A DNA stretch of 9,886 nt from a virus (Duplodnaviria; Heunggongvirae; Uroviricota; Caudoviricetes), in the IMG/VR virus record IMGVR_UViG_2778261064_000002; one strand, given 5' to 3'. The position numbers and the translations under genes were made by a program. Under the pieces are notes generated by a model, which saw only the letters and a list, made by a program, of their open reading frames with translations, had not been told where the DNA came from and did not search any database. This document shows positions 1-9,886 of the stretch, one piece after another. The stretch's first letter is position 1; each line of letters starts with the position of its first letter.

Positions 1-34
1 GTCTCAACAACTGCATTGTGTGATCCTCTCACGT

Positions 35-68
35 TTATCGAATTCGATAATCAAATTCGATTATCGAA
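35..68. promoter_or_regulatory. Operator-like palindromes upstream of the HTH regulator gene: a perfect 16-bp palindrome TTATCGAATTCGATAA (35-50) and an odd-centred 13-bp palindrome TTCGATTATCGAA (56-68) sharing the half-site TTATCGAA
   Basis: Read directly from the sequence. Two adjacent dyad-symmetric sites with a shared half-site lie in an AT-rich leader about 115-150 bp upstream of the ATG at 184. Dyad sites like these are typical of dimeric HTH repressor operators. Which protein binds them is unknown. Confidence 0.4.
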
Positions 69-183
69 TGTGATAAAAGATATGCGATCAAAAGTACGCG
101 GTCAATAACTTTTTGCGTATTTTTAGTCGCGCAAGCACAAAAGTACGCACATGCTTGTAACCTGTTAATTTATATGGTGAATT

Positions 184-855
184 ATGGAAAAGAACGGAAA
201 TGCGCCAATTAACGATAAACGTACTTTTTCTTATGATGGAATAGTACGCTTTAACGAACGTCTGAGAATCGCCATGGGAGATATGAGTAATCACGCTCTT
301 GCACGGCAAAGCGGCTTATCCGAGGCATCTATAAGAAAGTATGTAAAAGGTGATAGCTATCCAACTATTGATAATGCAGCAAAAGTTGCTGATGCGTGTG
401 GAGTATCTCTTGCATGGCTGTTAACTGGTGAGGATTGCGGTACTGATGATAATCACAAACGACCAGGTGCGAACAAAAAGACGCAAAAGAAAGCGTTAAC
501 TGATGCGTACAATGATGCGCAGAACGGATTACAACTTATATTGGCTAATCTTCTACCTGAAGATGCTGAAATGTTATTCTCGACGCTATGCAAAGTAGGT
601 ATTAACGGTGTGTTGGCACGATTACACGCAACAGGCGACCATGTTTTAAGTGCTGACCCAGAAACGGTCATCCGAAGCCTGAACATCAGAGAATCGCTCA
701 AAGATGCCATTAGTGTGGCATTGGCTGGCAACGAAGAAACTGACAAAGAGATTTTGCAACGCGCCAAATCCTGTATCCGAGCAGGAACACCAGGTGATCG
801 CGTTCCCGTCACACCGGAGCAAAAAACTAAGCCTATAAACAAGAAATCAGCATAA
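184..855 (+). CDS. XRE-family helix-turn-helix transcriptional regulator (cI-like N-terminal DNA-binding domain, uncharacterised C-terminal domain), 223 aa
   Basis: ORF from the track with ATG at 184 and GGTGA 4 nt upstream. Residues about 20-80 (NHALARQSGLSEASIRKYVKG...AKVADACGVSLAWLLTGE) match the XRE/cI-type HTH followed by the characteristic VS..WLLTG motif. The C-terminal roughly 140 aa looks helical and lacks the S24 peptidase Ser/Lys hallmarks of LexA/cI autocleaving repressors. Confidence 0.8.
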   Translation: MEKNGNAPINDKRTFSYDGIVRFNERLRIAMGDMSNHALARQSGLSEASIRKYVKGDSYPTIDNAAKVADACGVSLAWLLTGEDCGTDDNHKRPGANKKTQKKALTDAYNDAQNGLQLILANLLPEDAEMLFSTLCKVGINGVLARLHATGDHVLSADPETVIRSLNIRESLKDAISVALAGNEETDKEILQRAKSCIRAGTPGDRVPVTPEQKTKPINKKSA

Positions 856-1157
856 GCGCCTCGTTTTGGCGGGGCGTGTGCTGTTAGCTAATCAGCAATA
901 ACCACAACAAAACCGAACACAACAGATGAGAACAACTTGAGGAAAACGGGCAAGGATAAAACACTTTTTAAAAGCATTTAAAACCCGTTAAGTTTGTAGC
1001 AGAACCAGATCAAAAGCGCCCAGAATAAAGCGTAAAAAAAGGCACTTTTGGTCATTTCTCACAAATCCGCCCAGAATCACACTGAATCACCACACCCCGC
1101 GCCACGCAAGGCTTGCAGGTTCTACCAGGCTGCACGAACTCCACCCAGAATTGATCG

Positions 1158-1700
1158 CTACCCCACAGTTGCTCCCACTTTTACACTGGCAGATGCCGGT
1201 GCCACCGTCAGCCCGGTAACGCTCACTGTTTCAGTGCCTTCCTCTGCCAGATACGGACGCCCCACACCGCTGATTTTCACAGTGCGGGTCATCACGTCTT
1301 TTGAGGCAATGGTTTTACCCAGTGAACTCAGCCAGCCACGGAAAACATCAACAGTACCGTTGGGATATTTGATACGAAACGCGCAGACTTCACCGGAGTC
1401 GAACAACTGAACCAGTTTTTTCTGCCCGCTGTCACCCGGACGCCAGGCCAGCGTCGCCGAAGTATCACCGACTGATTTCTGCCCCTGGGTTGTCGTTTTC
1501 CAGTCTGCATCTTCATCATCGAGATAAGTATCATCTTCTGCATCAGCGGTCATTTCGCCAGGTTGCAGATCCTTCACCATCGCAAGACGCAGCCAGTCAG
1601 TGTCTGACAAAGGGTTCGCAAATGCGTCGCCGTTGCCGGTATACATCCAGAACGTCGTCCCCGCACCTTTCGTCTTTGCCAGTGGATTTGGTGTGGTCAT
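1158..1700 (-). CDS. V: Major tail tube protein, lambda gpV homologue, C-terminally short (180 aa; lacks most of the Ig-like C-terminal domain)
   Basis: Translation from the ATG at 1698-1700 ([36 protein letters not shown]...YLDDEDADW...[12 protein letters not shown]...[12 protein letters not shown]...) aligns closely with lambda gpV as I recall it ([36 protein letters not shown]...). Strong RBS AAGGAGGTG upstream. The upstream in-frame extension of the track ORF to 1775 is rejected. The ORF stops at TAG 1158-1160 where lambda V continues. Confidence 0.9.
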
Positions 1701-1710
1701 TGCCACCTCC

Positions 1711-2112
1711 TTAATTCGTGTACGTGATCTGGTACGTGATTTCCGCCATCGCCCAGGTGGCCATCTCATTATCACGTTGATAGTTAAAACCGAGTGGGAT
1801 CAGGGTGTCGATGAGTCCGGAAAGTGCCGGTACATCATTCAGGGCCGGGAAAATGGTGCTCTCCATCCACATATCCAGCTCTGAATCCGGTGCCTGTGCC
1901 CGGATGAAGACAGCAATATGCAGAACAGCCTGCCAGTCATCTTCATCCGTCATTTTTCCGGTGTACTGAGCATCACTCAGCCACACCGCCACGGCAGGCA
2001 GTTCCTGCGCATCAACAAATGCCGGAAGCCCGTCAAAAAACGTGGCGCTGTCTCCACACTGTTCCCGAAGGCGTGCCAGTACGACCTGGCGGATTTGTGT
2101 ATGTCGGTTCAT
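1711..2112 (-). CDS. U: Tail terminator protein, lambda gpU homologue (133 aa from ATG at 2110-2112; alternative ATG at 2122-2124)
   Basis: Translation ([15 protein letters not shown]...ATFFDG.PA..D...PAVAV.L....YTG...D..WQA.LHI.VF..AQ.PDSELD.WMES...P......PALS.LI......Y.RD......A..TY.ITY) closely matches lambda gpU as recalled. The ATG at 2110-2112 forms an ATGA overlap with the Z stop codon. Confidence 0.93.
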
Positions 2113-2687
2113 CGGGTCAGCCATAACCTCAGTTGTTGTTTCAGTGCATACCCCAGCTGTTTCGGCATTTCCGCAGCAATGATGCGGTCGCGGGCATCTT
2201 CAAATGCCTGTGTCAGCGGTCCGGACAGCGGGATTTTCACCACATCAATGGGGTAACGATTTTTGCCATCAATACGCCGCATCACATGCCAGCGACCATT
2301 CGCCAGTTGCTGAATAAACGCATCCCGGAAAAGATATTTACCCACCTTCAGCACACTGCCACGGTACTGCAGTTTTCCACCACGCCGGGCCAGTCTGACC
2401 CGGGCTGTCCCCAGCTTAATGGCGGGCAGATTGCCCCGGTTAACGCGGATCCTGGCCGTCATTTTTCCTGACGGACTGGCTTTAAACACCCGGACACGCT
2501 GACGTACCAGTTTCAGGGGGATCCCTTTCACCTGGTTATCTCCCGCAACGGTATTCCCGGCAACCTGCCGGGTGGCAACCGAGACCGCTTTCTGTGCCAC
2601 ACGGTTTATCGCCCATGCGCTGGCCTGTGGTACCATACGGGTATCAAGGCTGTTCAGATTGCGGATGGCATTCTCAAGCCCCTTCAT
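2109..2687 (-). CDS. Z: Minor tail protein / tail completion protein, lambda gpZ homologue (192 aa)
   Basis: Translation MKGLENAIRNL...AINRVA...RIRVNRGNLPAIKLGTARV...FIQQLANGRWHVMRRIDGKNRYPIDVVKIP...LGYALKQQLRL closely matches lambda gpZ as recalled, and has the same length. RBS AGAGGTG upstream of the ATG at 2685-2687. Confidence 0.93.
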   Translation of the reverse strand: MKGLENAIRNLNSLDTRMVPQASAWAINRVAQKAVSVATRQVAGNTVAGDNQVKGIPLKLVRQRVRVFKASPSGKMTARIRVNRGNLPAIKLGTARVRLARRGGKLQYRGSVLKVGKYLFRDAFIQQLANGRWHVMRRIDGKNRYPIDVVKIPLSGPLTQAFEDARDRIIAAEMPKQLGYALKQQLRLWLTR

Positions 2688-2698
2688 CCCACACCTCT

Positions 2699-2974
2699 TT
2701 ACTCAATAAAGATCATTGGCTTACCGTTAAAGCGTTCATGCCGTGTGACCGTCCATTGTTGTTCGTCATAAACAACGCGATCCCCGCGCCGTGGGCGATA
2801 TCCCGAAGAAAACACCACCAGAGAGACCGCAGGTCCGGACAGAGCATTCAGCTCTGCCAGTGTTTCTCCCAGGATCACAGTCATATCGACATCATTAATC
2901 GAGGCTGTCTTTCCCATCTTTCTGACCGTGATAGCATCCATACGCGCTGCCAGCCGGGAAAAGGGATCAGACAT
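2699..2974 (-). CDS. Head-tail joining protein, gpFII-like (91 aa)
   Basis: Small ORF directly between the head and tail genes. The N-terminal pattern MSDPFSRLAARMDAITVRKMGKTASI resembles lambda FII (MADFDNLFDAAIARADETIRGYMGTSATI) and it has an RGD-containing C-terminal region. Its start overlaps the stop of the upstream DUF2190-like gene by 8 nt. Confidence 0.7.
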   Translation of the reverse strand: MSDPFSRLAARMDAITVRKMGKTASINDVDMTVILGETLAELNALSGPAVSLVVFSSGYRPRRGDRVVYDEQQWTVTRHERFNGKPMIFIE

Positions 2975-3290
2975 TGAGTTTTACCGGCACTTCTTCTGCA
3001 CTGGTTCCAGCATCTGCCCAGACAACCCCGACCAGCGGATCAGAGCCGCTGTTAGTCAGCTGAACTTTTCCGGACTTCAGATAAACCTTCTTACCCGTTT
3101 TCATGTCATCCGTTTTCAGCTTAGGCAGCATAAACACACCTTCGGTCAGGCCGTCGCCTGTTTCACCCTGTGGAATATCGGTCAGCGTCACCGCAAAAAC
3201 ATCGCCCACCTGCACCAGATCTCCGCTGCTGATGGCTGCACTGGCAACAATCGCCACCGTTTTTCCTTCTTCTACAAAATTCTTTGCCAT
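2967..3290 (-). CDS. DUF2190-like small phage head protein (putative capsid decoration/cement protein), 107 aa from ATG at 3288-3290
   Basis: Begins MAKNFVEEGKTV...SGDLV.VG..F.V...DI..G..G....EGVF.LPK, the pattern I recall for DUF2190-family proteins encoded just after major capsid genes. GGAG RBS upstream. The track ORF start at 3335 is an upstream in-frame extension and is rejected. Confidence 0.7.
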   Translation of the reverse strand: MAKNFVEEGKTVAIVASAAISSGDLVQVGDVFAVTLTDIPQGETGDGLTEGVFMLPKLKTDDMKTGKKVYLKSGKVQLTNSGSDPLVGVVWADAGTSAEEVPVKLNV

Positions 3291-3333
3291 AACTGTCTCC
3301 GCACAGCCCCGTTCAGGGGCTGATTTCAGGTAC

Positions 3334-3353
3334 AAAAAAAGCCCTTACGGGCC
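3334..3353 (-). terminator. Candidate intrinsic terminator or mRNA 3' stabilising hairpin just downstream of the capsid gene (minus-strand GGCCCGTAAGGGC stem-loop followed by T7)
   Basis: Plus strand 3334-3353 is AAAAAAA followed by GCCCTTACGGGCC, so the minus-strand RNA forms a short GC stem (4-5 bp, 4-nt loop) followed by seven U. It lies 24 nt after the capsid stop. A second 7-bp hairpin (3304-3322, CAGCCCC-gttca-GGGGCTG) sits between it and the next RBS. The stem is short, so it is probably only a partial terminator. Confidence 0.45.
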
Positions 3354-3376
3354 ATCAGAGTTGTTGTCTGCGACGT

Positions 3377-5335
3377 TTACGCCGTACATTTCACCAGACC
3401 GCGGTGATCAACTGGCGCGACACCGGCGTCAATACGCACTTTCGTTGTCACGCCATCCACACTGAAGCCCTCCATCTGATCAATATATGGCGTATCCACA
3501 CCGTTGAGATAAGCCACTTCAATCGTATCGGAGCCTTTGGACGCAGCCAGGTAGAAAGTGGTCTGGCTGTTATCATCAAGACGAGGCTCTGCAATAACGG
3601 TCGCAAAATCTTTCACCGGGTTAATAATACCGGCGTTAATGTCAGCCCCCTTGACACTTGAGGAGCGAATGACCTGGTTAGCAACAGACTCCATCGCCGT
3701 CGGTACCAGTACGAACGCAGGACGAATATTCAGATGACGCTCCCCCTCTTTCTGAACACGCATCAACTGGCGGGCTTTATCCAGCGATGCCACGTCCATT
3801 GCAGCGCTCTCCAGTACGTTTGCATGTTTCGCTTTATCGAACAGACTTACATTATCTGTGGATATTTTCGGGTTAGACGTCAGAATGGCATAAACCAGAT
3901 CGGCAATAGTGGATTTCGCCGCACGACCCAGTTTCATCGGGACATCGGTCAGCATATTCAGATCATCATTGATAATGGCCTGACGGGTGATACTGAACAG
4001 CTCGCCATAGGTCGCCAGTGCAATAGTGGCCTGTTTATCTCCGGTGGTGACGTATTTATATTCCGCCCCTTCACGCACCTGACGCAGAGCACTGAAGCCC
4101 CCCATACCCACACGATGGGCAATTTTAAAATCAGACAACTGACCTTTCCGCGTCCACTGTTCATAGGTTTCAGGGGCATCTTCCCAGCCCTGCAGAATGG
4201 CTTTGTTCGCAACATCCAGCAGAATATTACCGAAGTCAGACGTACTGTGTGTGAACGCCGCACCGACCATCTGCATCGGGTTATAACTGGAAACCCCAAT
4301 CCCCCGTTCAGTCAGTGACATACGAGCATATTCACGCAGGGTCATCCCGTTGTAGACATTATCACGTTCGGTTTTTTCAAATCCGGCACGCGCCATCAGC
4401 GCCTGGCGGATCCCGTCCCCCACAAAATTACCGTTACCGGCATAAATATGAGCCGGGGTATTTTTATTGGATGGCGTGGACTCGCGCCCCATCTCGTTCA
4501 ACAGCTTTTCGCGGGCCTGCTCCAGCGAACATTCAGGATCGGCAAGACACTGAGCCTGCAGCGTCTGATAACGCCCGCCAAACATGGCAAACAAATCATT
4601 AATACCGTTTACACGCGCTTTTTGCTCTGCCAGTACCTGCGCACGGATACTGTTTTCATCCACCACGGGTGCTGCTGCCTGCACTGGCGTCCGGGAGGCT
4701 ACAGGTTCATTATCCTGTACGCGTGGAGCACTGTTGCGTGGCGGAGTAATCATGTTTCGAATGGATTCCGGCATCTTTTTAAATTCCTCTGTACGTTTTG
4801 ACTGAATACATGCCATTGCCTTAACGGCTGGCGTTACCTGATCAGCAAATCCATGTGCCAGACATTCGGCACCGGACATCCAGGTCTCATCCGCCAGCAT
4901 GGCAGCAATTTCATCGGTGGTTTTCCCGGTTTTCTGTGCATAAGCGGGTAACAGAACCGCCTCAACCTTATCGAGCAGGTCGGCATAGGTGCGCATGTCT
5001 TCCGCATCACCGCCCGTAAAGCCAAATGGTTTATGAATCATCATGAAGGTGTTTTCCGGCATAATGACCGGGTTTCCCACCATCGCAATGACCGACGCCA
5101 TTGACGCCGCCACACCGTCGACATAAACGGTAATGGACGCACCATGTGTTTTCAGCGCATTAAAAATGGCGATGCCTTCAAAGACATCGCCACCCGGTGA
5201 ATTAATATGGAGATTAATGTGGGTGATATCGCCCAGTGCATTCAGATCACTGATAAACTGCTTCGCTGTAACACCCCAGAAACCAATCTCGTCATAAATA
5301 TAAATATCCGCGTCACTCTGGTGACCAGCCTGCAT
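3377..5335 (-). CDS. Prohead protease (ClpP/S14-like), scaffold-like linker and HK97-fold major capsid protein fused in one ORF (652 aa from ATG at 5333-5335)
   Basis: The N-terminal roughly 200 aa carry ClpP-family hallmarks (INSPGGDVFEG, GVAASMASVIA with the catalytic Ser, MIHKP with the catalytic His; compare E. coli ClpP INSPGG / GQAASMG / MIHQP). The middle roughly 130 aa are Ala/Gln/Glu/Arg-rich and scaffold-like. The C-terminal roughly 320 aa look like a major capsid protein. The track ORF (739 aa) has an 87-codon upstream extension overlapping the portal gene; I take the ATG 13 nt after the portal stop. Confidence 0.88.
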   Translation of the reverse strand: MQAGHQSDADIYIYDEIGFWGVTAKQFISDLNALGDITHINLHINSPGGDVFEGIAIFNALKTHGASITVYVDGVAASMASVIAMVGNPVIMPENTFMMIHKPFGFTGGDAEDMRTYADLLDKVEAVLLPAYAQKTGKTTDEIAAMLADETWMSGAECLAHGFADQVTPAVKAMACIQSKRTEEFKKMPESIRNMITPPRNSAPRVQDNEPVASRTPVQAAAPVVDENSIRAQVLAEQKARVNGINDLFAMFGGRYQTLQAQCLADPECSLEQAREKLLNEMGRESTPSNKNTPAHIYAGNGNFVGDGIRQALMARAGFEKTERDNVYNGMTLREYARMSLTERGIGVSSYNPMQMVGAAFTHSTSDFGNILLDVANKAILQGWEDAPETYEQWTRKGQLSDFKIAHRVGMGGFSALRQVREGAEYKYVTTGDKQATIALATYGELFSITRQAIINDDLNMLTDVPMKLGRAAKSTIADLVYAILTSNPKISTDNVSLFDKAKHANVLESAAMDVASLDKARQLMRVQKEGERHLNIRPAFVLVPTAMESVANQVIRSSSVKGADINAGIINPVKDFATVIAEPRLDDNSQTTFYLAASKGSDTIEVAYLNGVDTPYIDQMEGFSVDGVTTKVRIDAGVAPVDHRGLVKCTA

Positions 5336-5348
5336 CCTGAACCAGGAA

Positions 5349-6857
5349 TTATTCTTCGGACTGGTCGTCGGTGTGCTGCGGCTCCTGTCGTTTCGTTGCG
5401 GCACTGCTGCCTCCTTTATCACTGGCCGGATCAGTATCAAATACCAGATCCAGCTTGCGGTTTTCATCAATTTCGGCCTTGCGCCGACGTTTGACATCAT
5501 CCGGATTACGACCACCAGCACGTACCCAGTCTGATTCTGTCGCCGCTCCACCACGAATCTGGATTTTCCAGGCCTCAGCCTCCTTAACAGGGTCAATCCA
5601 CGGCATCACTGGTCCGGAATACACCGCGGTATACAGTGAAGAACGGTCAAGATCGCGGGGTAGCCTGATAACACCGGATGCCACAGCCTGTTTCAGCCAG
5701 GCACGATACATCGGGCGGGTGACGGCACCAATAAACCAGTCCTGCAGGATCAGGTAGCCATCAGTAGACTCAACCAGTTCCTGACGCTGGGCGCTGTAAG
5801 TGCCGTTATAGTTGCGTGCCGTACTGGAAAAACTCAGACGACTGCCCGCCGCCACGGCACGCAACTGACCATTACGAAAAGTTTCAAGGTTAGGATTGGG
5901 ACGATCCGACTTCACCATTCCGATTTCTTCGCCGGGTTTCAGATCGTCGTAAATAATGCCTGGCTGAATGGTAAGCTCGCGTTCATTCTCCTTGCTGCCA
6001 TTACCATCCGGTTCATAGCTCTGCCCGTCGCCTTTGCGGATGTACATCCCCAGAGCAGCGGCGATCCTTGCTGCAGTCAGCTCAGAATCTTCATACTCTT
6101 TCAGGGCACTGAGGCGGATCAGCACACCGGACAACAAAGACGTCCCGCGCATCTGGTGCAGACGGCGAACAAATTTAAGATGCAGCATTCGCTCTGCATC
6201 CACTTCTTTGGTTTCCATCTGCCGCCCGGATACGGGACGGCTTTTATACACCAGATATTTTTCGGGACGCCCCCAGTCATCAACAAACACGCCCTGATTC
6301 AGCCTGTTGCTCTCATCACTGGTCATGGGAATAAAGTCCGGCTCGAGCGCCTCCAGCCAGAAATGAACACCGGCAGAAGGCGTCAGGCTGTTTATGCGCC
6401 CGGAAACCATCTGGGCAAACACCTCACCATCGCGCAGCCAGGTACGCAGCATCAGACGTTCCAGCATCGGACGGGTAAACTGCCCGGTGACTTCCGGACT
6501 GACAGACCATTCACTCCATCGGGTGCGTATCTCCGCTGCCAGATCACGGGCAATGGCCCCATTGCGTAATACCGGATGTGGCTCGACAATAATCCCGTTT
6601 TTCCCCACCACCCGTTCTTCCAGCTTGTCAAATACACCAATAACCAGATCGTGGTTGTTATCAAGGTAACGGGCCTGCTCACGTAACGACACGGCCCCGT
6701 ACTGGCTTAACTGGTCGGCAGTTCGGTTTTCCCGCCGGGCTTTGTGTGTCCGCGTCGTTTTTACGGCCTCATAAGCCTGGATCACCGCACGGGAACGCAG
6801 CCTTGCCGCTTTCCATCCTGGTGAAAAAACGCCAATCACATCATCAAGAATTGCCAT
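5349..6857 (-). CDS. Portal protein, lambda gpB family (502 aa from ATG at 6855-6857)
   Basis: Large ORF between the gpW-like and protease-capsid genes. The internal segment LRAVAAGSRLSFSSTARNYNGTYSAQRQ resembles lambda gpB LRYIAAGLGVSYEQLSRNYAQMSYSTARAS, and the C-terminus is acidic. The ATG start overlaps the W stop codon (TGATG). The track ORF begins at an upstream GTG (6929), which I reject. Confidence 0.88.
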   Translation of the reverse strand: MAILDDVIGVFSPGWKAARLRSRAVIQAYEAVKTTRTHKARRENRTADQLSQYGAVSLREQARYLDNNHDLVIGVFDKLEERVVGKNGIIVEPHPVLRNGAIARDLAAEIRTRWSEWSVSPEVTGQFTRPMLERLMLRTWLRDGEVFAQMVSGRINSLTPSAGVHFWLEALEPDFIPMTSDESNRLNQGVFVDDWGRPEKYLVYKSRPVSGRQMETKEVDAERMLHLKFVRRLHQMRGTSLLSGVLIRLSALKEYEDSELTAARIAAALGMYIRKGDGQSYEPDGNGSKENERELTIQPGIIYDDLKPGEEIGMVKSDRPNPNLETFRNGQLRAVAAGSRLSFSSTARNYNGTYSAQRQELVESTDGYLILQDWFIGAVTRPMYRAWLKQAVASGVIRLPRDLDRSSLYTAVYSGPVMPWIDPVKEAEAWKIQIRGGAATESDWVRAGGRNPDDVKRRRKAEIDENRKLDLVFDTDPASDKGGSSAATKRQEPQHTDDQSEE

Positions 6858-7075
6858 CAGAACCTCGCCAGCCGGTACCCGGGATGCCCCCGTCGTCGTG
6901 TAATCAGAGCCGCAAGGCGGCGCTCCCACTCCTGCCGTCCCTGCCGGATCTCAGATAAGTTTTCCATGGTCATCTGCTGACCATTAAAGGTGACGGATTT
7001 TCCGTCCAGCACCGCCATTTCAGCTTCCGTATAACGCTGAATCATGGCTTCGATATCATTCTGGTTCATAACCAT
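6857..7075 (-). CDS. W: Head-tail connector / head completion protein, gpW-like (72 aa; alternative ATG at 7067-7069)
   Basis: Small ORF between the large terminase and portal genes, as in lambda. The C-terminal RRRGHPGY matches lambda gpW RRRGPAGF, and the central region is similar. Its start overlaps the large terminase stop codon. Confidence 0.75.
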   Translation of the reverse strand: MVMNQNDIEAMIQRYTEAEMAVLDGKSVTFNGQQMTMENLSEIRQGRQEWERRLAALITRRRGHPGYRLARF

Positions 7076-9168
7076 CCTCCGGAAGTCAGCCAGGGGTTAA
7101 CATCGTCAGTTACTGTTTTCTTCCGTTTTTGTTTTTTAACAGGCGTGGATACCGGTTCCGGTGAGGGTGACGGTTCGGTACTGTCCGGGACACACTCCAG
7201 CCAGGTTTCCCGGCTCGCCCACTCCGGTGCATCCGGCCAGCGGATCTTTTCGTATCCATGCAGAATGACCAGAGCCTCGGCATACACCATCAGGTCAAAA
7301 GCTTCGTTGGCACCGCGACCCGGCTTACTCCATTTCCCGTCACTGCTCCGCTCTTCATACGTCAGTTCGTCGTAAAACCAGCTCCCCAGCCAGTCAGGGA
7401 AATGCACATAGCCGGGACCTGGCGAGTCACGCCATAACGCGTTATTCACCCGGTCTTTCAGGGCATCCGTCTGAAGAAGCCAGAGCGGCACATCACCTGC
7501 GGCCTGCGCCCGTCGGCCCGTTCGTCCGGTGTTATCAGGGAATGTACGGGTGATCAGTTTTGCGCGCCGGATGCTGTCGCCCTTAAACAGGTAAATACGT
7601 TTACCAAGGCCATCACGACGGCAACGACGCCAGAATTTATAGGCATTATCAGTGACCCCGTCTTCACCGCCGGAGTCCACCGCCATTGCCATCAGTCGCA
7701 TTTGTTGAGAAGGATCGGAGGCCAGCGGCCAGCTTTTATGAAAAACATCCGTCAGCAGGACATCCCAGTCTTCCGGATAGCTGGCCGGATCAATTCGCTG
7801 GCTCTCCCCGTCGCTGTCACCGCGCAATGACTGCGTGATGTTGTAACGATCAATAATCCAGCGTTCACCACGGCTGCCATAGCCCGTTACCTGAACCACA
7901 AAACGGCGATGACGTCCCGCCTGCACATCCACTGTCGCCACAAGGAAATTAACGCCATCCGGCACACTGCGGGAAGGAACTGGCTCTGCCCGCTGCTCAA
8001 GCAGTTCACTTTTTCGTTGCTCCATGCTGGCGCGGGGAAGATAAGGTAATCCCCAGTCGGTATTGATAACCGTCTTGAGTGTTTCTTCACTTCCGGTTGT
8101 CTCGTATTCCTGTTCTGCAGTAAGCAGTTTGTAAACGAGTTGCGAGAGTGTCTGGTAAGCAGCTGCCGGACCCTCCATCCAGAATGACGCAATACGTGAA
8201 CGTCGGGGATCACCATAACGACTGCCATCCGCATTGATGGATTCACCATCCCGCAACCAGACCCCACGTCCGTTCAGCTCACGTTTTTGTTCAGGCATAA
8301 TCCGTCCTGAACAGGAAGGACACTGAATATAAGCCGCCTCACTTGCCAGCACGGGATCGGCAATATCACGGAAACCAGCAACCACATCGCCGCAGGGCTG
8401 AAAATACTCACCACAGTGTGGACAGGGCCAGTACCAGCGACGGCGATCGCCACGGTTATAGAGCGACAGTATCCCCGTGGTTGGCGGAGCCTCATGCGGT
8501 GAAGTCCGTCGCCATTTCACATCCTTCACATCCCTGCCGGGGGAACTCTCCACCAGCGTCATACCACTGGACATAAATGTGGTGGTACGTTTTGAGGCAA
8601 GAGAGAAGGCATCCCCCTCGCCATCAATATCTTCCGGAAAACGGTCATAATCCGTCAGCGCGACGCATTTATAATCTGATGAGGACATGATATTGACTGA
8701 TGGCCAGCCGATTTTCAGGTAGTTGCCAGCAAGGAATGTTCTGTCATAAACGTTGTTGTCATTTTTGTTCGGACTCAGGCGACTGACCACTTCCGGGCTG
8801 ACGCGAAACGTTCTGGCAAGTCGTTTTTTGGAGTGTTCGCGGGCTTTTTCCTCCGTCATCTGAATGATCAGCATATCCGCAGGATCGCAAATCACGTTGT
8901 AAATCACCCAGCCGTCAATCAGGCCGATAGTCTTGCCGGTTCGTGCCGGACCAACAAATATCACTGCGTCGTATTCACGCGAGGCCAGGCAGTTCATCGG
9001 CTCAATAACATACGGTGCGACCAGCGGATCCCACGGGACTGAGTTCCCGGCCCCCATGGGCACCTGCATATACTGAGCAACGGCATCAGCAACCCGCATT
9101 CGTCTCGGTGCGCGAAGGATATAACCTGAATCGGTTCGTGCTGCCTTTGCGGTTTCCTGATTCAGCAT
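7066..9168 (-). CDS. Terminase large subunit, gpA family (700 aa)
   Basis: Walker A-like motif VGPARTGKT near the N-terminus and a Cys/His cluster WPCPHCGEYF...CPSC comparable to the lambda gpA ACPHCGE region, with size and position matching. The start ATG overlaps the small terminase stop (TAATG), with GGAGG RBS. Confidence 0.93.
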   Translation of the reverse strand: MLNQETAKAARTDSGYILRAPRRMRVADAVAQYMQVPMGAGNSVPWDPLVAPYVIEPMNCLASREYDAVIFVGPARTGKTIGLIDGWVIYNVICDPADMLIIQMTEEKAREHSKKRLARTFRVSPEVVSRLSPNKNDNNVYDRTFLAGNYLKIGWPSVNIMSSSDYKCVALTDYDRFPEDIDGEGDAFSLASKRTTTFMSSGMTLVESSPGRDVKDVKWRRTSPHEAPPTTGILSLYNRGDRRRWYWPCPHCGEYFQPCGDVVAGFRDIADPVLASEAAYIQCPSCSGRIMPEQKRELNGRGVWLRDGESINADGSRYGDPRRSRIASFWMEGPAAAYQTLSQLVYKLLTAEQEYETTGSEETLKTVINTDWGLPYLPRASMEQRKSELLEQRAEPVPSRSVPDGVNFLVATVDVQAGRHRRFVVQVTGYGSRGERWIIDRYNITQSLRGDSDGESQRIDPASYPEDWDVLLTDVFHKSWPLASDPSQQMRLMAMAVDSGGEDGVTDNAYKFWRRCRRDGLGKRIYLFKGDSIRRAKLITRTFPDNTGRTGRRAQAAGDVPLWLLQTDALKDRVNNALWRDSPGPGYVHFPDWLGSWFYDELTYEERSSDGKWSKPGRGANEAFDLMVYAEALVILHGYEKIRWPDAPEWASRETWLECVPDSTEPSPSPEPVSTPVKKQKRKKTVTDDVNPWLTSGGWL

Positions 9169-9659
9169 TACTCCTCCTGCTGTAATTCCTCCTCATCATC
9201 CGCACCTGCTTCGGTCACCCGCAGGGCTATCTGATCGCGCAGATCATCAATAATGGACTGAACACGGCTCACAGCGGCAGGCTGCAGACCGCAGTCGCGT
9301 TCCAGAATATCCGGTAATGTCTCCAGCACCTGCACGACCGCTTTTGCCCAGATGGCAAACTCCCGTCTGACATCACTGGCCGGAATGAGTTGTGCTGTTT
9401 CCTGTTCGAACTTAAGACGCTCACGTTCAGACTGATACCAGGCTTTGCGCTCATGTGGATCCATTTCGCCCTCAGCAACCGGCGGTGGTAACCCCATAAA
9501 TTCAGTCAGAATATCGGTCAACCGGTATAGCTTGAGTTTGTCATGTCCACCAGCGGGACGAATGTTTTTCAGTCTTGCCACGACAGTCTGGCGGTGCAGA
9601 CCAGATAAAGCCGCCAGTTGATTAATATTCAGCACCAGGTTTTTCAACTCATGATCCAT
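9168..9659 (-). CDS. Terminase small subunit, Nu1-like (163 aa)
   Basis: First gene of the packaging operon, immediately upstream of and overlapping the large terminase gene. N-terminal HTH-like segment (LVLNINQLAALSGLHRQTVVARLKN) and acidic C-terminal tail (DDEEELQQEE), as in Nu1-type small terminases. Strong RBS GGAGGAAAT before the ATG. Confidence 0.8.
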   Translation of the reverse strand: MDHELKNLVLNINQLAALSGLHRQTVVARLKNIRPAGGHDKLKLYRLTDILTEFMGLPPPVAEGEMDPHERKAWYQSERERLKFEQETAQLIPASDVRREFAIWAKAVVQVLETLPDILERDCGLQPAAVSRVQSIIDDLRDQIALRVTEAGADDEEELQQEE

Positions 9660-9886
9660 ATTTCCTCCGGAGAGCTTTAAACATGCATCGTGCGAACAAC
9701 TTTAAGAAAACGCGTTCGATGTCGAACAAAAAACACTCAATTCGACATACAAAAAACAAACAACCATTAATAATCAATAAGATGCAAAGATGATGGTGGC
9801 CGATAAAAAGTAACCGGCTCATTTAAACCGTCTGGTCTGTTTCCTCCGGCTCTACAAAAATAATGTCCATCATTTTTAATGGACAC
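9660..9886. other. Non-coding region upstream of the small terminase gene; candidate cos / terminase-recognition region with TCGAAC/GTTCGA repeats and a terminal 7-bp inverted repeat
   Basis: No credible ORF. Imperfect palindrome GTTCGATGTCGAAC (9714-9727), inverted copy TTCGACAT (9741-9748) and CGAAC at 9693-9697. Inverted repeat TGTCCAT-cattttta-ATGGACA at 9864-9885. By analogy with lambda, cosB/cosN lie within about 200 bp upstream of Nu1. The cos assignment is inferred from position only. Confidence 0.25.

Follow-up and report, generated by a model that had tools for sequence, protein, structure and literature searches.

Putative immunity region of a Mu-like prophage nested in a lambdoid prophage, with candidate operators for an XRE-type repressor and a Ner-family protein

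In phage Mu, transposase and repressor share a fold and sites, O1 and O2 being bound by the I-alpha domain of the transposase as well, and a comparison of Mu with D108 places the head of the transposase within the immunity module. Two divergent promoters, PcM and Pe, and an operator/enhancer element have been described for Mu (PMC3820752). The Ner-family protein EnrR binds AT-rich palindromes, as seen in a crystal structure, and its own promoter (PMC9023278), which fits binding of a Ner protein to the dyads described below.

The DNA analysed here, referred to as the window, comprises 9,886 nucleotides. It is likely, with a probability of about 0.78 in our estimate, that positions 18-250 represent the early-control (immunity) region of a Mu-like prophage, in which the repressor would read one family of repeats, the boxes, and a Ner-like protein would read another, the TTATC/GATAA dyads (Table 1). 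The region is a further example of a well-known type of phage lysis-lysogeny switch. As in Mu and D108, it lies some 1 kb in from the left end, transcription of the repressor gene runs toward this end and that of ner-A-B in the opposite direction, repeated putative operators lie over the early promoter with a Ner dyad just upstream of ner, and the transposase possesses an I-alpha domain with an immunity-type-specific reading head. It differs from Mu and D108 in its repressor, which has an XRE-type HTH and is not a homologue of the transposase I-alpha domain, and in the location of two putative operator boxes inside the repressor coding sequence. Furthermore, while Mu has an IHF site between its operators, no IHF consensus WATCAANNNNTTR is present in the window, where a degenerate site could still exist. 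In sequence, neither the putative operators nor the putative Ner site is related to its counterpart in Mu and D108.

Judged by sequence comparison, the DNA-binding domain of the repressor has its nearest relatives in the c repressors of Pseudomonas D3112-like phages (DMS3, MP22, JBD), whose N-terminal domain is related (FxERLR...GVSLxWLxTGE). In DMS3, repeated boxes are also found upstream of the repressor gene and inside its 5' end, and the transposase also carries PF02316. In contrast, the DMS3 repressor contains a Peptidase_S24 self-cleavage domain, which was not detected by Pfam in the repressor of the window, and the DMS3 intergenic region measures 548 bp versus 167 bp here. For DMS3-2, annotated as a transcriptional regulator upstream of the transposase gene, no Pfam match was obtained at E<=0.01, and it is therefore not a PF13693 protein. 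The Ner-like protein of the window resembles Ner, Nlp (SfsB) and EnrR. It is 89 aa long in an identical prophage (L001), belongs to PF13693 (WP_077781711.1, E 1e-19), and matches the PDB structures 1neq (Mu Ner) and 7f9h (EnrR). The site proposed for it differs from both described types: four TTATC/GATAA half-sites over 42 bp are found and not the EnrR motif AATAAATNATTTATT, and the arrangement is unlike the D108-type dyad CCGTGAGCTAC-N8-GTAGC...

Table 1. Features of the control region and related elements (positions in the window unless another sequence is named; promoter and operator entries are predictions)
Feature	Position	Strand	Sequence	Remarks
Ner-family gene	1-17	-		first codons MQLLR...; gene continues past the left edge of the window
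ner-like ribosome-binding site	24-30	-	GAGAGGA	read from the sequence; kept in G1-G3
Dyad 1, half-sites 1 and 2	35-50		TTATC-gaattc-GATAA	perfect 16-bp palindrome TTATCGAATTCGATAA
Inner dyad, half-sites 2 and 3 with flanks	45-66		CGATAATC-N6-GATTATCG	best-conserved symmetry of the element
Odd palindrome, 13 bp	56-68		TTCGATTATCGAA	counted within inner dyad 45-66
Dyad 2, half-sites 3 and 4	61-76		TTATC-gaatgt-GATAA	16-bp dyad TTATCGAATGTGATAA; covers predicted transcription start
Predicted Pe -10	77-82	-	TATCTT	promoter scan; Pe would drive ner and transposase genes A and B
Box 1	90-98	+	AAAAGTACG	within 17-bp spacer of predicted Pe
Predicted Pe -35	100-105	-	TTGACC	promoter scan; 17-bp spacer
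Box 2	116-124	-	CGTATTTTT	1 mismatch; just upstream of Pe -35; convergent with box 1
Box 3	139-147	+	AAAAGTACG	45 nt before repressor start codon
Repressor gene	184-855	+		223 aa; XRE-type HTH N-terminal domain and uncharacterised C-terminal domain
Weak box	188-196	+	AAAAGAACG	1 mismatch to the 9-mer; repressor codons 2-5
Inverted box pair, first member	220-228	-	CGTACTTTT	in repressor coding sequence; followed by 11-bp spacer
Inverted box pair, second member	240-248	+	AATAGTACG	in repressor coding sequence
ATTCTGGGYG repeats	1017-1026, 1068-1077, 1142-1151	-	ATTCTGGGYG	just inside left terminus
Left terminus of Mu-like prophage	1167	-	5'-TGTGGGG	matches at other insertion sites stop there
DMS3 boxes	775-988 of DMS3 (L031)		CTATAGARCTTGAAA	repeated; upstream of c gene, partial copies in its 5' coding part
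Variable transposase head	11618-11737 of L001			equivalents in L004, L006, L011, L012 and L013

Positions 1-1167 are the left end of a Mu-like prophage of about 36.9 kb inserted in a lambdoid major tail gene. The same segment is found at 100% identity in the chromosomes of eight E. coli OkiPb017xx genomes, and in OkiPb01701 the left end is followed by the repressor gene, the control region, the Ner-like gene, a Mu-type transposase gene and an AAA ATPase gene. The repressor gene diverges from an operon of ner, transposase A and ATPase B, as expected of a Mu-type phage. According to the annotation of the identical copy, the OkiPb017xx prophage forms its junction with the host gene fliH, repressor side first, and the genes beyond the ATPase specify Mor, lysis functions, and Mu-type head and contractile-tail proteins. 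The control region is placed about 0.9-1.15 kb inside the left end, which has a 5'-TG terminus and repeated putative transposase sites. The latter are three ATTCTGGGYG repeats, probably the end-binding sites of the transposase; in another locus (L030) the same repeats occur at the left end and related copies near the right end (37848 and 37876). The sequence from 1168 matches a lambdoid major tail gene, with hits to genes for phage major tail proteins at 1168-1200, so that one prophage, the Mu-like one, is nested in another. The remainder of the window, 1168-9886, is lambdoid prophage with large minus-strand ORFs resembling terminase, portal and head genes. The control region belongs to the Mu-like transposable prophage and not to a lambdoid phage. 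Related copies of the element are found within a wide variety of host genes, in keeping with a transposable phage. Of 5,426 complete E. coli genomes, 96 gave matches, as did several other Enterobacterales, and a megablast search with 1-1167 gave no match among cultured phages.

In the repressor (WP_052319567.1), residues 25-84 correspond to HTH_3 / Phage_CI_repr of Pfam, and the full-length protein falls in phrog_3037, 'transcriptional repressor'. It is about 32% identical to the c repressors of Pseudomonas phages MP22 and DMS3, mainly in the DNA-binding domain (32% identity and E 5e-14 in pairwise comparisons with D3112/DMS3-type c repressors by tblastn and BLASTP); a single-sequence search of the PDB revealed no relative. 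Between alleles, the last ~65 residues are nearly identical (700-855 and the equivalents in L002/L003) beside N-terminal and middle parts of only about 50% identity, which indicates a recombination boundary inside the repressor gene. On the other side of the control region, the reverse complement of 1-34 reads GAGAGGA-N7-ATGCAGTTGTTGAGAC. With GAGAGGA preceding it, the ner-like gene begins at 17 on the minus strand, so that the repeats fall in the interval 18-183 between ner and the repressor gene of a Mu-like prophage.

An earlier note on this DNA, prepared from the letters of the sequence, had listed a perfect 16-bp palindrome TTATCGAATTCGATAA at 35-50, a 13-bp palindrome TTCGATTATCGAA at 56-68, direct copies of CAAAAGTACGC at 89-99 and 138-148, and an inverted near-copy GCGTATTTTT at 115-124, all of which are present. 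The palindrome at 56-68, although real, turned out to be only one reading of a nested 42-bp dyad with TTATC/GATAA half-sites. The boxes are likewise real, but their proposed extent of 35-150 was too short, as the family runs on into the repressor coding sequence (220-228, 240-248 and, weakly, 188-196). Counted as 10-mers with at most one mismatch, five boxes are present, to which a weaker sixth may be added, all within 90-249; those in the repressor gene are 219-228 (-) and 240-249 (+), and the weak box shows two mismatches as a 10-mer (188-197). By the same definition, no further box was detected anywhere in the 9.9-kb window. Further copies of the motifs were also sought across the prophage: its remaining part contains only two 10-mers with one mismatch, both changed in the GTACG core, and the exact core AAAGTACG is restricted, within the prophage, to the control region. 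A family of five 10-mers (at most one mismatch) was never obtained in 500 dinucleotide-preserving shuffles of 18-260, the maximum being three. A chance origin of the repeats, at similar frequency in shuffled or flanking sequence, is thus ruled out by the shuffles together with the absence of the motif elsewhere in the prophage.

The comparative evidence far outweighs these shuffle statistics. The loci compared were 14 from E. coli, and 13 from other Enterobacterales and one Pasteurellaceae genome, Gallibacterium; box and promoter layouts were compared in 13 loci and the dyads aligned in 12. Gene order, protein families, motif positions and the patterns of conservation and co-variation were read directly from these sequences. 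Two loci, L002 and L003, have an identical Ner gene and a repressor with 60% identity to that of the window. As far as position 78 their DNA hardly differs from the window; beyond it the sequences have diverged, but every AAAGTACG core persists as an island. At the position of box 2 both contain a perfect CGTACTTTT, and at the position homologous to the weak box (188-196) L002 contains AATAGTACG.

Among immunity groups, the sequence of the box varies and its layout is kept. The box is AAAAGTACG in G1, AAAAATCCG in G2, AATAAWCCG in G3, AAAAGAAAG in G4, AAAAGAACG in L016, AAAAGAAAC in L021, and AAAAGGAAC in L017/L018, the variants by group in the 13 loci being GTACG, ATCCG, AWCCG, GAAAG, GAACG, GAAAC, and GGAAC. 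In groups with other repressor types the motifs are quite different from these boxes. The shared layout consists of a plus-strand box, a minus-strand box 16-26 nt further on, and often a third box ahead of the repressor start. In addition, the 5'-terminal ~100 nt of the repressor reading frame contain a minus/plus pair, exactly 20 nt from start to start, in eight loci with five box sequences. The amino acids encoded at this pair vary between groups exactly in the codons that spell the box (KRTF...IVRF, ERII...IIRF, DRII...INRF). The amino acids of the repressor thus change to fit the local box, indicating that the DNA motif and not the peptide is under constraint. This would be a clear case of regulatory DNA sites within a coding sequence in which the amino acids follow the site.

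The position of the boxes relative to the early promoter is also common to the groups. A sigma-70-type promoter, Pe, is predicted on the minus strand at 105-77. In 11 of the 13 related loci, a -10 of the TAnnnT type ends 57-60 nt ahead of the ner ATG; likewise in 11 of 13, and irrespective of immunity group, the corresponding position holds a -35-like hexamer, which in most of them reads TTGAYN. Box 1 lies in the spacer of predicted Pe and box 2 beside its -35. The spacer holds the group-specific box in G1-G3, L016 and L021, where it starts 0 or 1 nt after the -35, a classic site for a repressor to keep out RNA polymerase; G4 is an exception, its first box being located upstream of the -35 and not in the spacer. 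For the repressor gene, the promoter scan gave no plus-strand promoter upstream of 184, and a separate scan over the 13 loci gave no consistent position. Taken together, the AAAAGTACG boxes are most likely operators of the repressor.

The dyads are arranged differently. Across the 12 aligned loci the element has 40-42 bp and follows the order TTATC-N6-GATAA, N8-10, TTATC-N6-GATAA, ending at the Pe -10; dyad 2 abuts this -10 (0-2 nt) in 10 of the 11 loci in which the promoter was found. The distance between the element and the start codon of ner is 18 nt in G1-G3 and L016/L019/L021, and 17-19 nt in L006/L007/L020. The arms of the element are conserved, and its centres and linker are variable. 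Columns 11-16 and 27-32, the inner half-sites, pair in 11-12 of the 12 loci. In the Sodalis MAG (L022) the outer half-sites are degenerate and the inner 12-bp dyad is perfect. A perfect palindrome of at least 16 bp was obtained in 28 of 2000 local shuffles, so that the palindrome by itself is only mildly unusual. With up to two mismatches, ATCGAATTCGAT occurs three times in the window (0.5 expected), and TTATC-N6-GATAA occurs only at these two places in a 42-kb stretch holding the same prophage. A reading as 13-bp tandem repeats was rejected as specific to one immunity group, since the other groups keep only the TTATC/GATAA arms; the 13-bp periodicity arises because three half-sites here happen to share TTATCGAAT.

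These sites were examined together with the proteins of the respective loci. The same arms accompany at least four Ner alleles and repressors with unrelated helices, and the extended half-site tracks the class of the Ner helix, GATAATC occurring with ..SMRNVFYR (G1-G3) and GATAACA with ..SLKNALYR (G4, L020, L022). A PF13693 gene is found beside a dyad-symmetric site that overlaps its own predicted transcript start. In Pantoea sp. Eser (L023), which has a Mu-type c repressor adjoining, a dyad CCGTGAGCTAC-cttatgag-GTAGCCCGTGC is present about 25-55 nt upstream of ner, in a location equivalent to that of the TTATC/GATAA element. Its pattern, CCGTGAGCTAC-N8-GTAGC.., resembles the D108 Ner site, and a D108-like dyad at the same relative place fits binding of Ner to dyads. 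The four TTATC/GATAA half-sites at 35-76 are therefore regarded, on the basis of these comparisons, as most likely the operators of Ner, and a putative Ner operator consensus is obtained from the alignment.

The groups also differ in a way that separates the two kinds of sites. G1-G3 possess nearly the same Ner recognition helix (..S/A-MRNVFYR) and different boxes, which argues against Ner on the boxes. The repressor helices of G1-G4 are very different (SEASIRKY, SEATIRKY, SETTIRKY, PSTLNNY) and the TTATC/GATAA arms the same. Accordingly, boxes follow the repressor and dyads follow the Ner family. From these patterns we infer which protein reads which motif, where the promoters are positioned, and what the regulatory consequences would be. 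Transcription from Pe would start near 70 and proceed leftward through ner and the genes for the transposase and the MuB-like protein. The XRE-type repressor would bind the AAAAGTACG boxes, and boxes 1 and 2, in the Pe spacer and upstream of the -35, would together shut Pe. Box 3 sits where the promoter of the repressor itself should be, and the inverted pair inside the repressor gene would serve in autoregulation or as a looping anchor. Ner, once made, would bind the four half-sites, cover the Pe start and damp early transcription. The earlier note had envisaged a multi-operator switch possibly bound by a second factor, and the two repeat families indeed behave, across related prophages, as would be expected of sites for two proteins. 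The divergent promoter it suspected for a gene left of the window has its counterpart in predicted Pe, and the cro-like gene it considered there is of the Ner family, the Mu counterpart of cro (PF13693), starting at 17 on the minus strand. For this uncharacterised family of Mu-like prophages the analysis supplies concrete candidate operators, and the comparison a series of natural immunity types, in each of which a repressor helix goes with a particular box sequence.

The boxes could have an additional function. The transposase (WP_042970503.1) contains PF02316, rve and Mu-transpos_C domains according to Pfam, and in a profile search its N-terminus matched the enhancer-binding domain of MuA (1TNS, E 1.4e-7) and the DNA-binding domain of Mu c (1G4D); a single-sequence PDB search with the N-terminus found nothing, only the profile search giving matches. 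An I-alpha domain, as needed for reading an enhancer, is thus carried by the transposase. It is possible, if on balance improbable, that the boxes are also a transposition enhancer bound by this N-terminal winged-helix (I-alpha) domain. Between immunity groups only the first ~40 residues of the transposase, the helix-turn-helix head, differ, mirroring the situation in Mu versus D108, and hardly any variation is seen over another ~130 residues in G1, G2, G4, L011 and L012. Since only the head varies with the immunity group, it belongs to the immunity module. In the pairs L001/L002, L013/L014 and L006/L007, the repressors are 45-60% identical, the transposase heads 99-100%, and the box is the same; moreover, the boxes are situated 0.92-1.08 kb from the left end, the location of the Mu enhancer. 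On the other hand, the repressor is XRE-type and unrelated to I-alpha, so that two different folds would need to read one sequence, the box positions in or beside the Pe -35 and spacer are accounted for by repression alone, and positional linkage (ner is only 270 bp) could explain co-inheritance. Among 15 loci from a contig scan, no natural recombinant separating the transposase head from the repressor was found. Because repressor, Ner allele and the first ~40 transposase residues are always inherited together with the boxes, co-variation does not separate repressor from transposase as the reader of the boxes. That two unrelated folds read the same boxes, the XRE repressor as operators and the I-alpha transposase as enhancer, through co-evolution and not just linkage, is doubtful. 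If true, Mu-style competition between repressor and transposase at an enhancer would have been kept without the homology that explains it in Mu, and boxes serving the transposase as well would make a good system for studying the co-evolution of two folds on one DNA target.

For the inner dyad at 45-66, a function mainly in RNA was considered, as a stem-loop at the very 5' end of the ner-A-B mRNA with a role in message stability or translational control. With the predicted transcript start at ~70, the hairpin would be placed at about +5 to +26. Folding beats shuffles in three of four groups (z -3.8, -2.6, -2.0), and the linker pairs 17/26 and 18/25 covary in the 12-locus alignment, as does the pair 11/32 flanking the arms, which is complementary in 12 of 12 loci with three Watson-Crick types. 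However, one group folds no better than shuffles (z +0.4), the arm sequences TTATC/GATAA are themselves conserved, beyond mere complementarity, the outer half-sites 35-39 and 72-76 share these arms with 72-76 being outside the predicted transcript, and wobble pairing on the transcribed strand does not account for the mismatches. A search of 1-1200 gave no Rfam family match at E<=1. A primary role in RNA is considered unlikely, and binding of Ner to the dyads as DNA remains the preferred interpretation.

Even less support can be given to the view that the boxes are an enhancer instead of repressor operators, with the repressor not binding them; this is very unlikely. A reversed assignment, with the repressor on the TTATC/GATAA dyads and Ner on the boxes, would by itself fit the identical Ner gene and boxes shared by L001 and L002, but it is highly improbable given that G1, G2 and G3 have almost one Ner recognition helix and yet different boxes, that the repressor helices of G1-G4 differ strongly (SEASIRKY versus PSTLNNY) with the same arms, and that it would be unusual to find a repressor acting only downstream of the -10 and Ner covering the -35.

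Inspection of the transposase genes led to some further observations. For L013/L014 (~1858-1906, minus strand), the transposase start in RefSeq looks too short; an upstream in-frame ATG adds MWVTAKECVGLPDLPM, restoring the conserved first helix of the domain. In L021 and L022 (Sodalis MAG), in-frame stops are present in the reading frame of the transposase N-terminus, and these symbiont copies are therefore probably decaying prophages.
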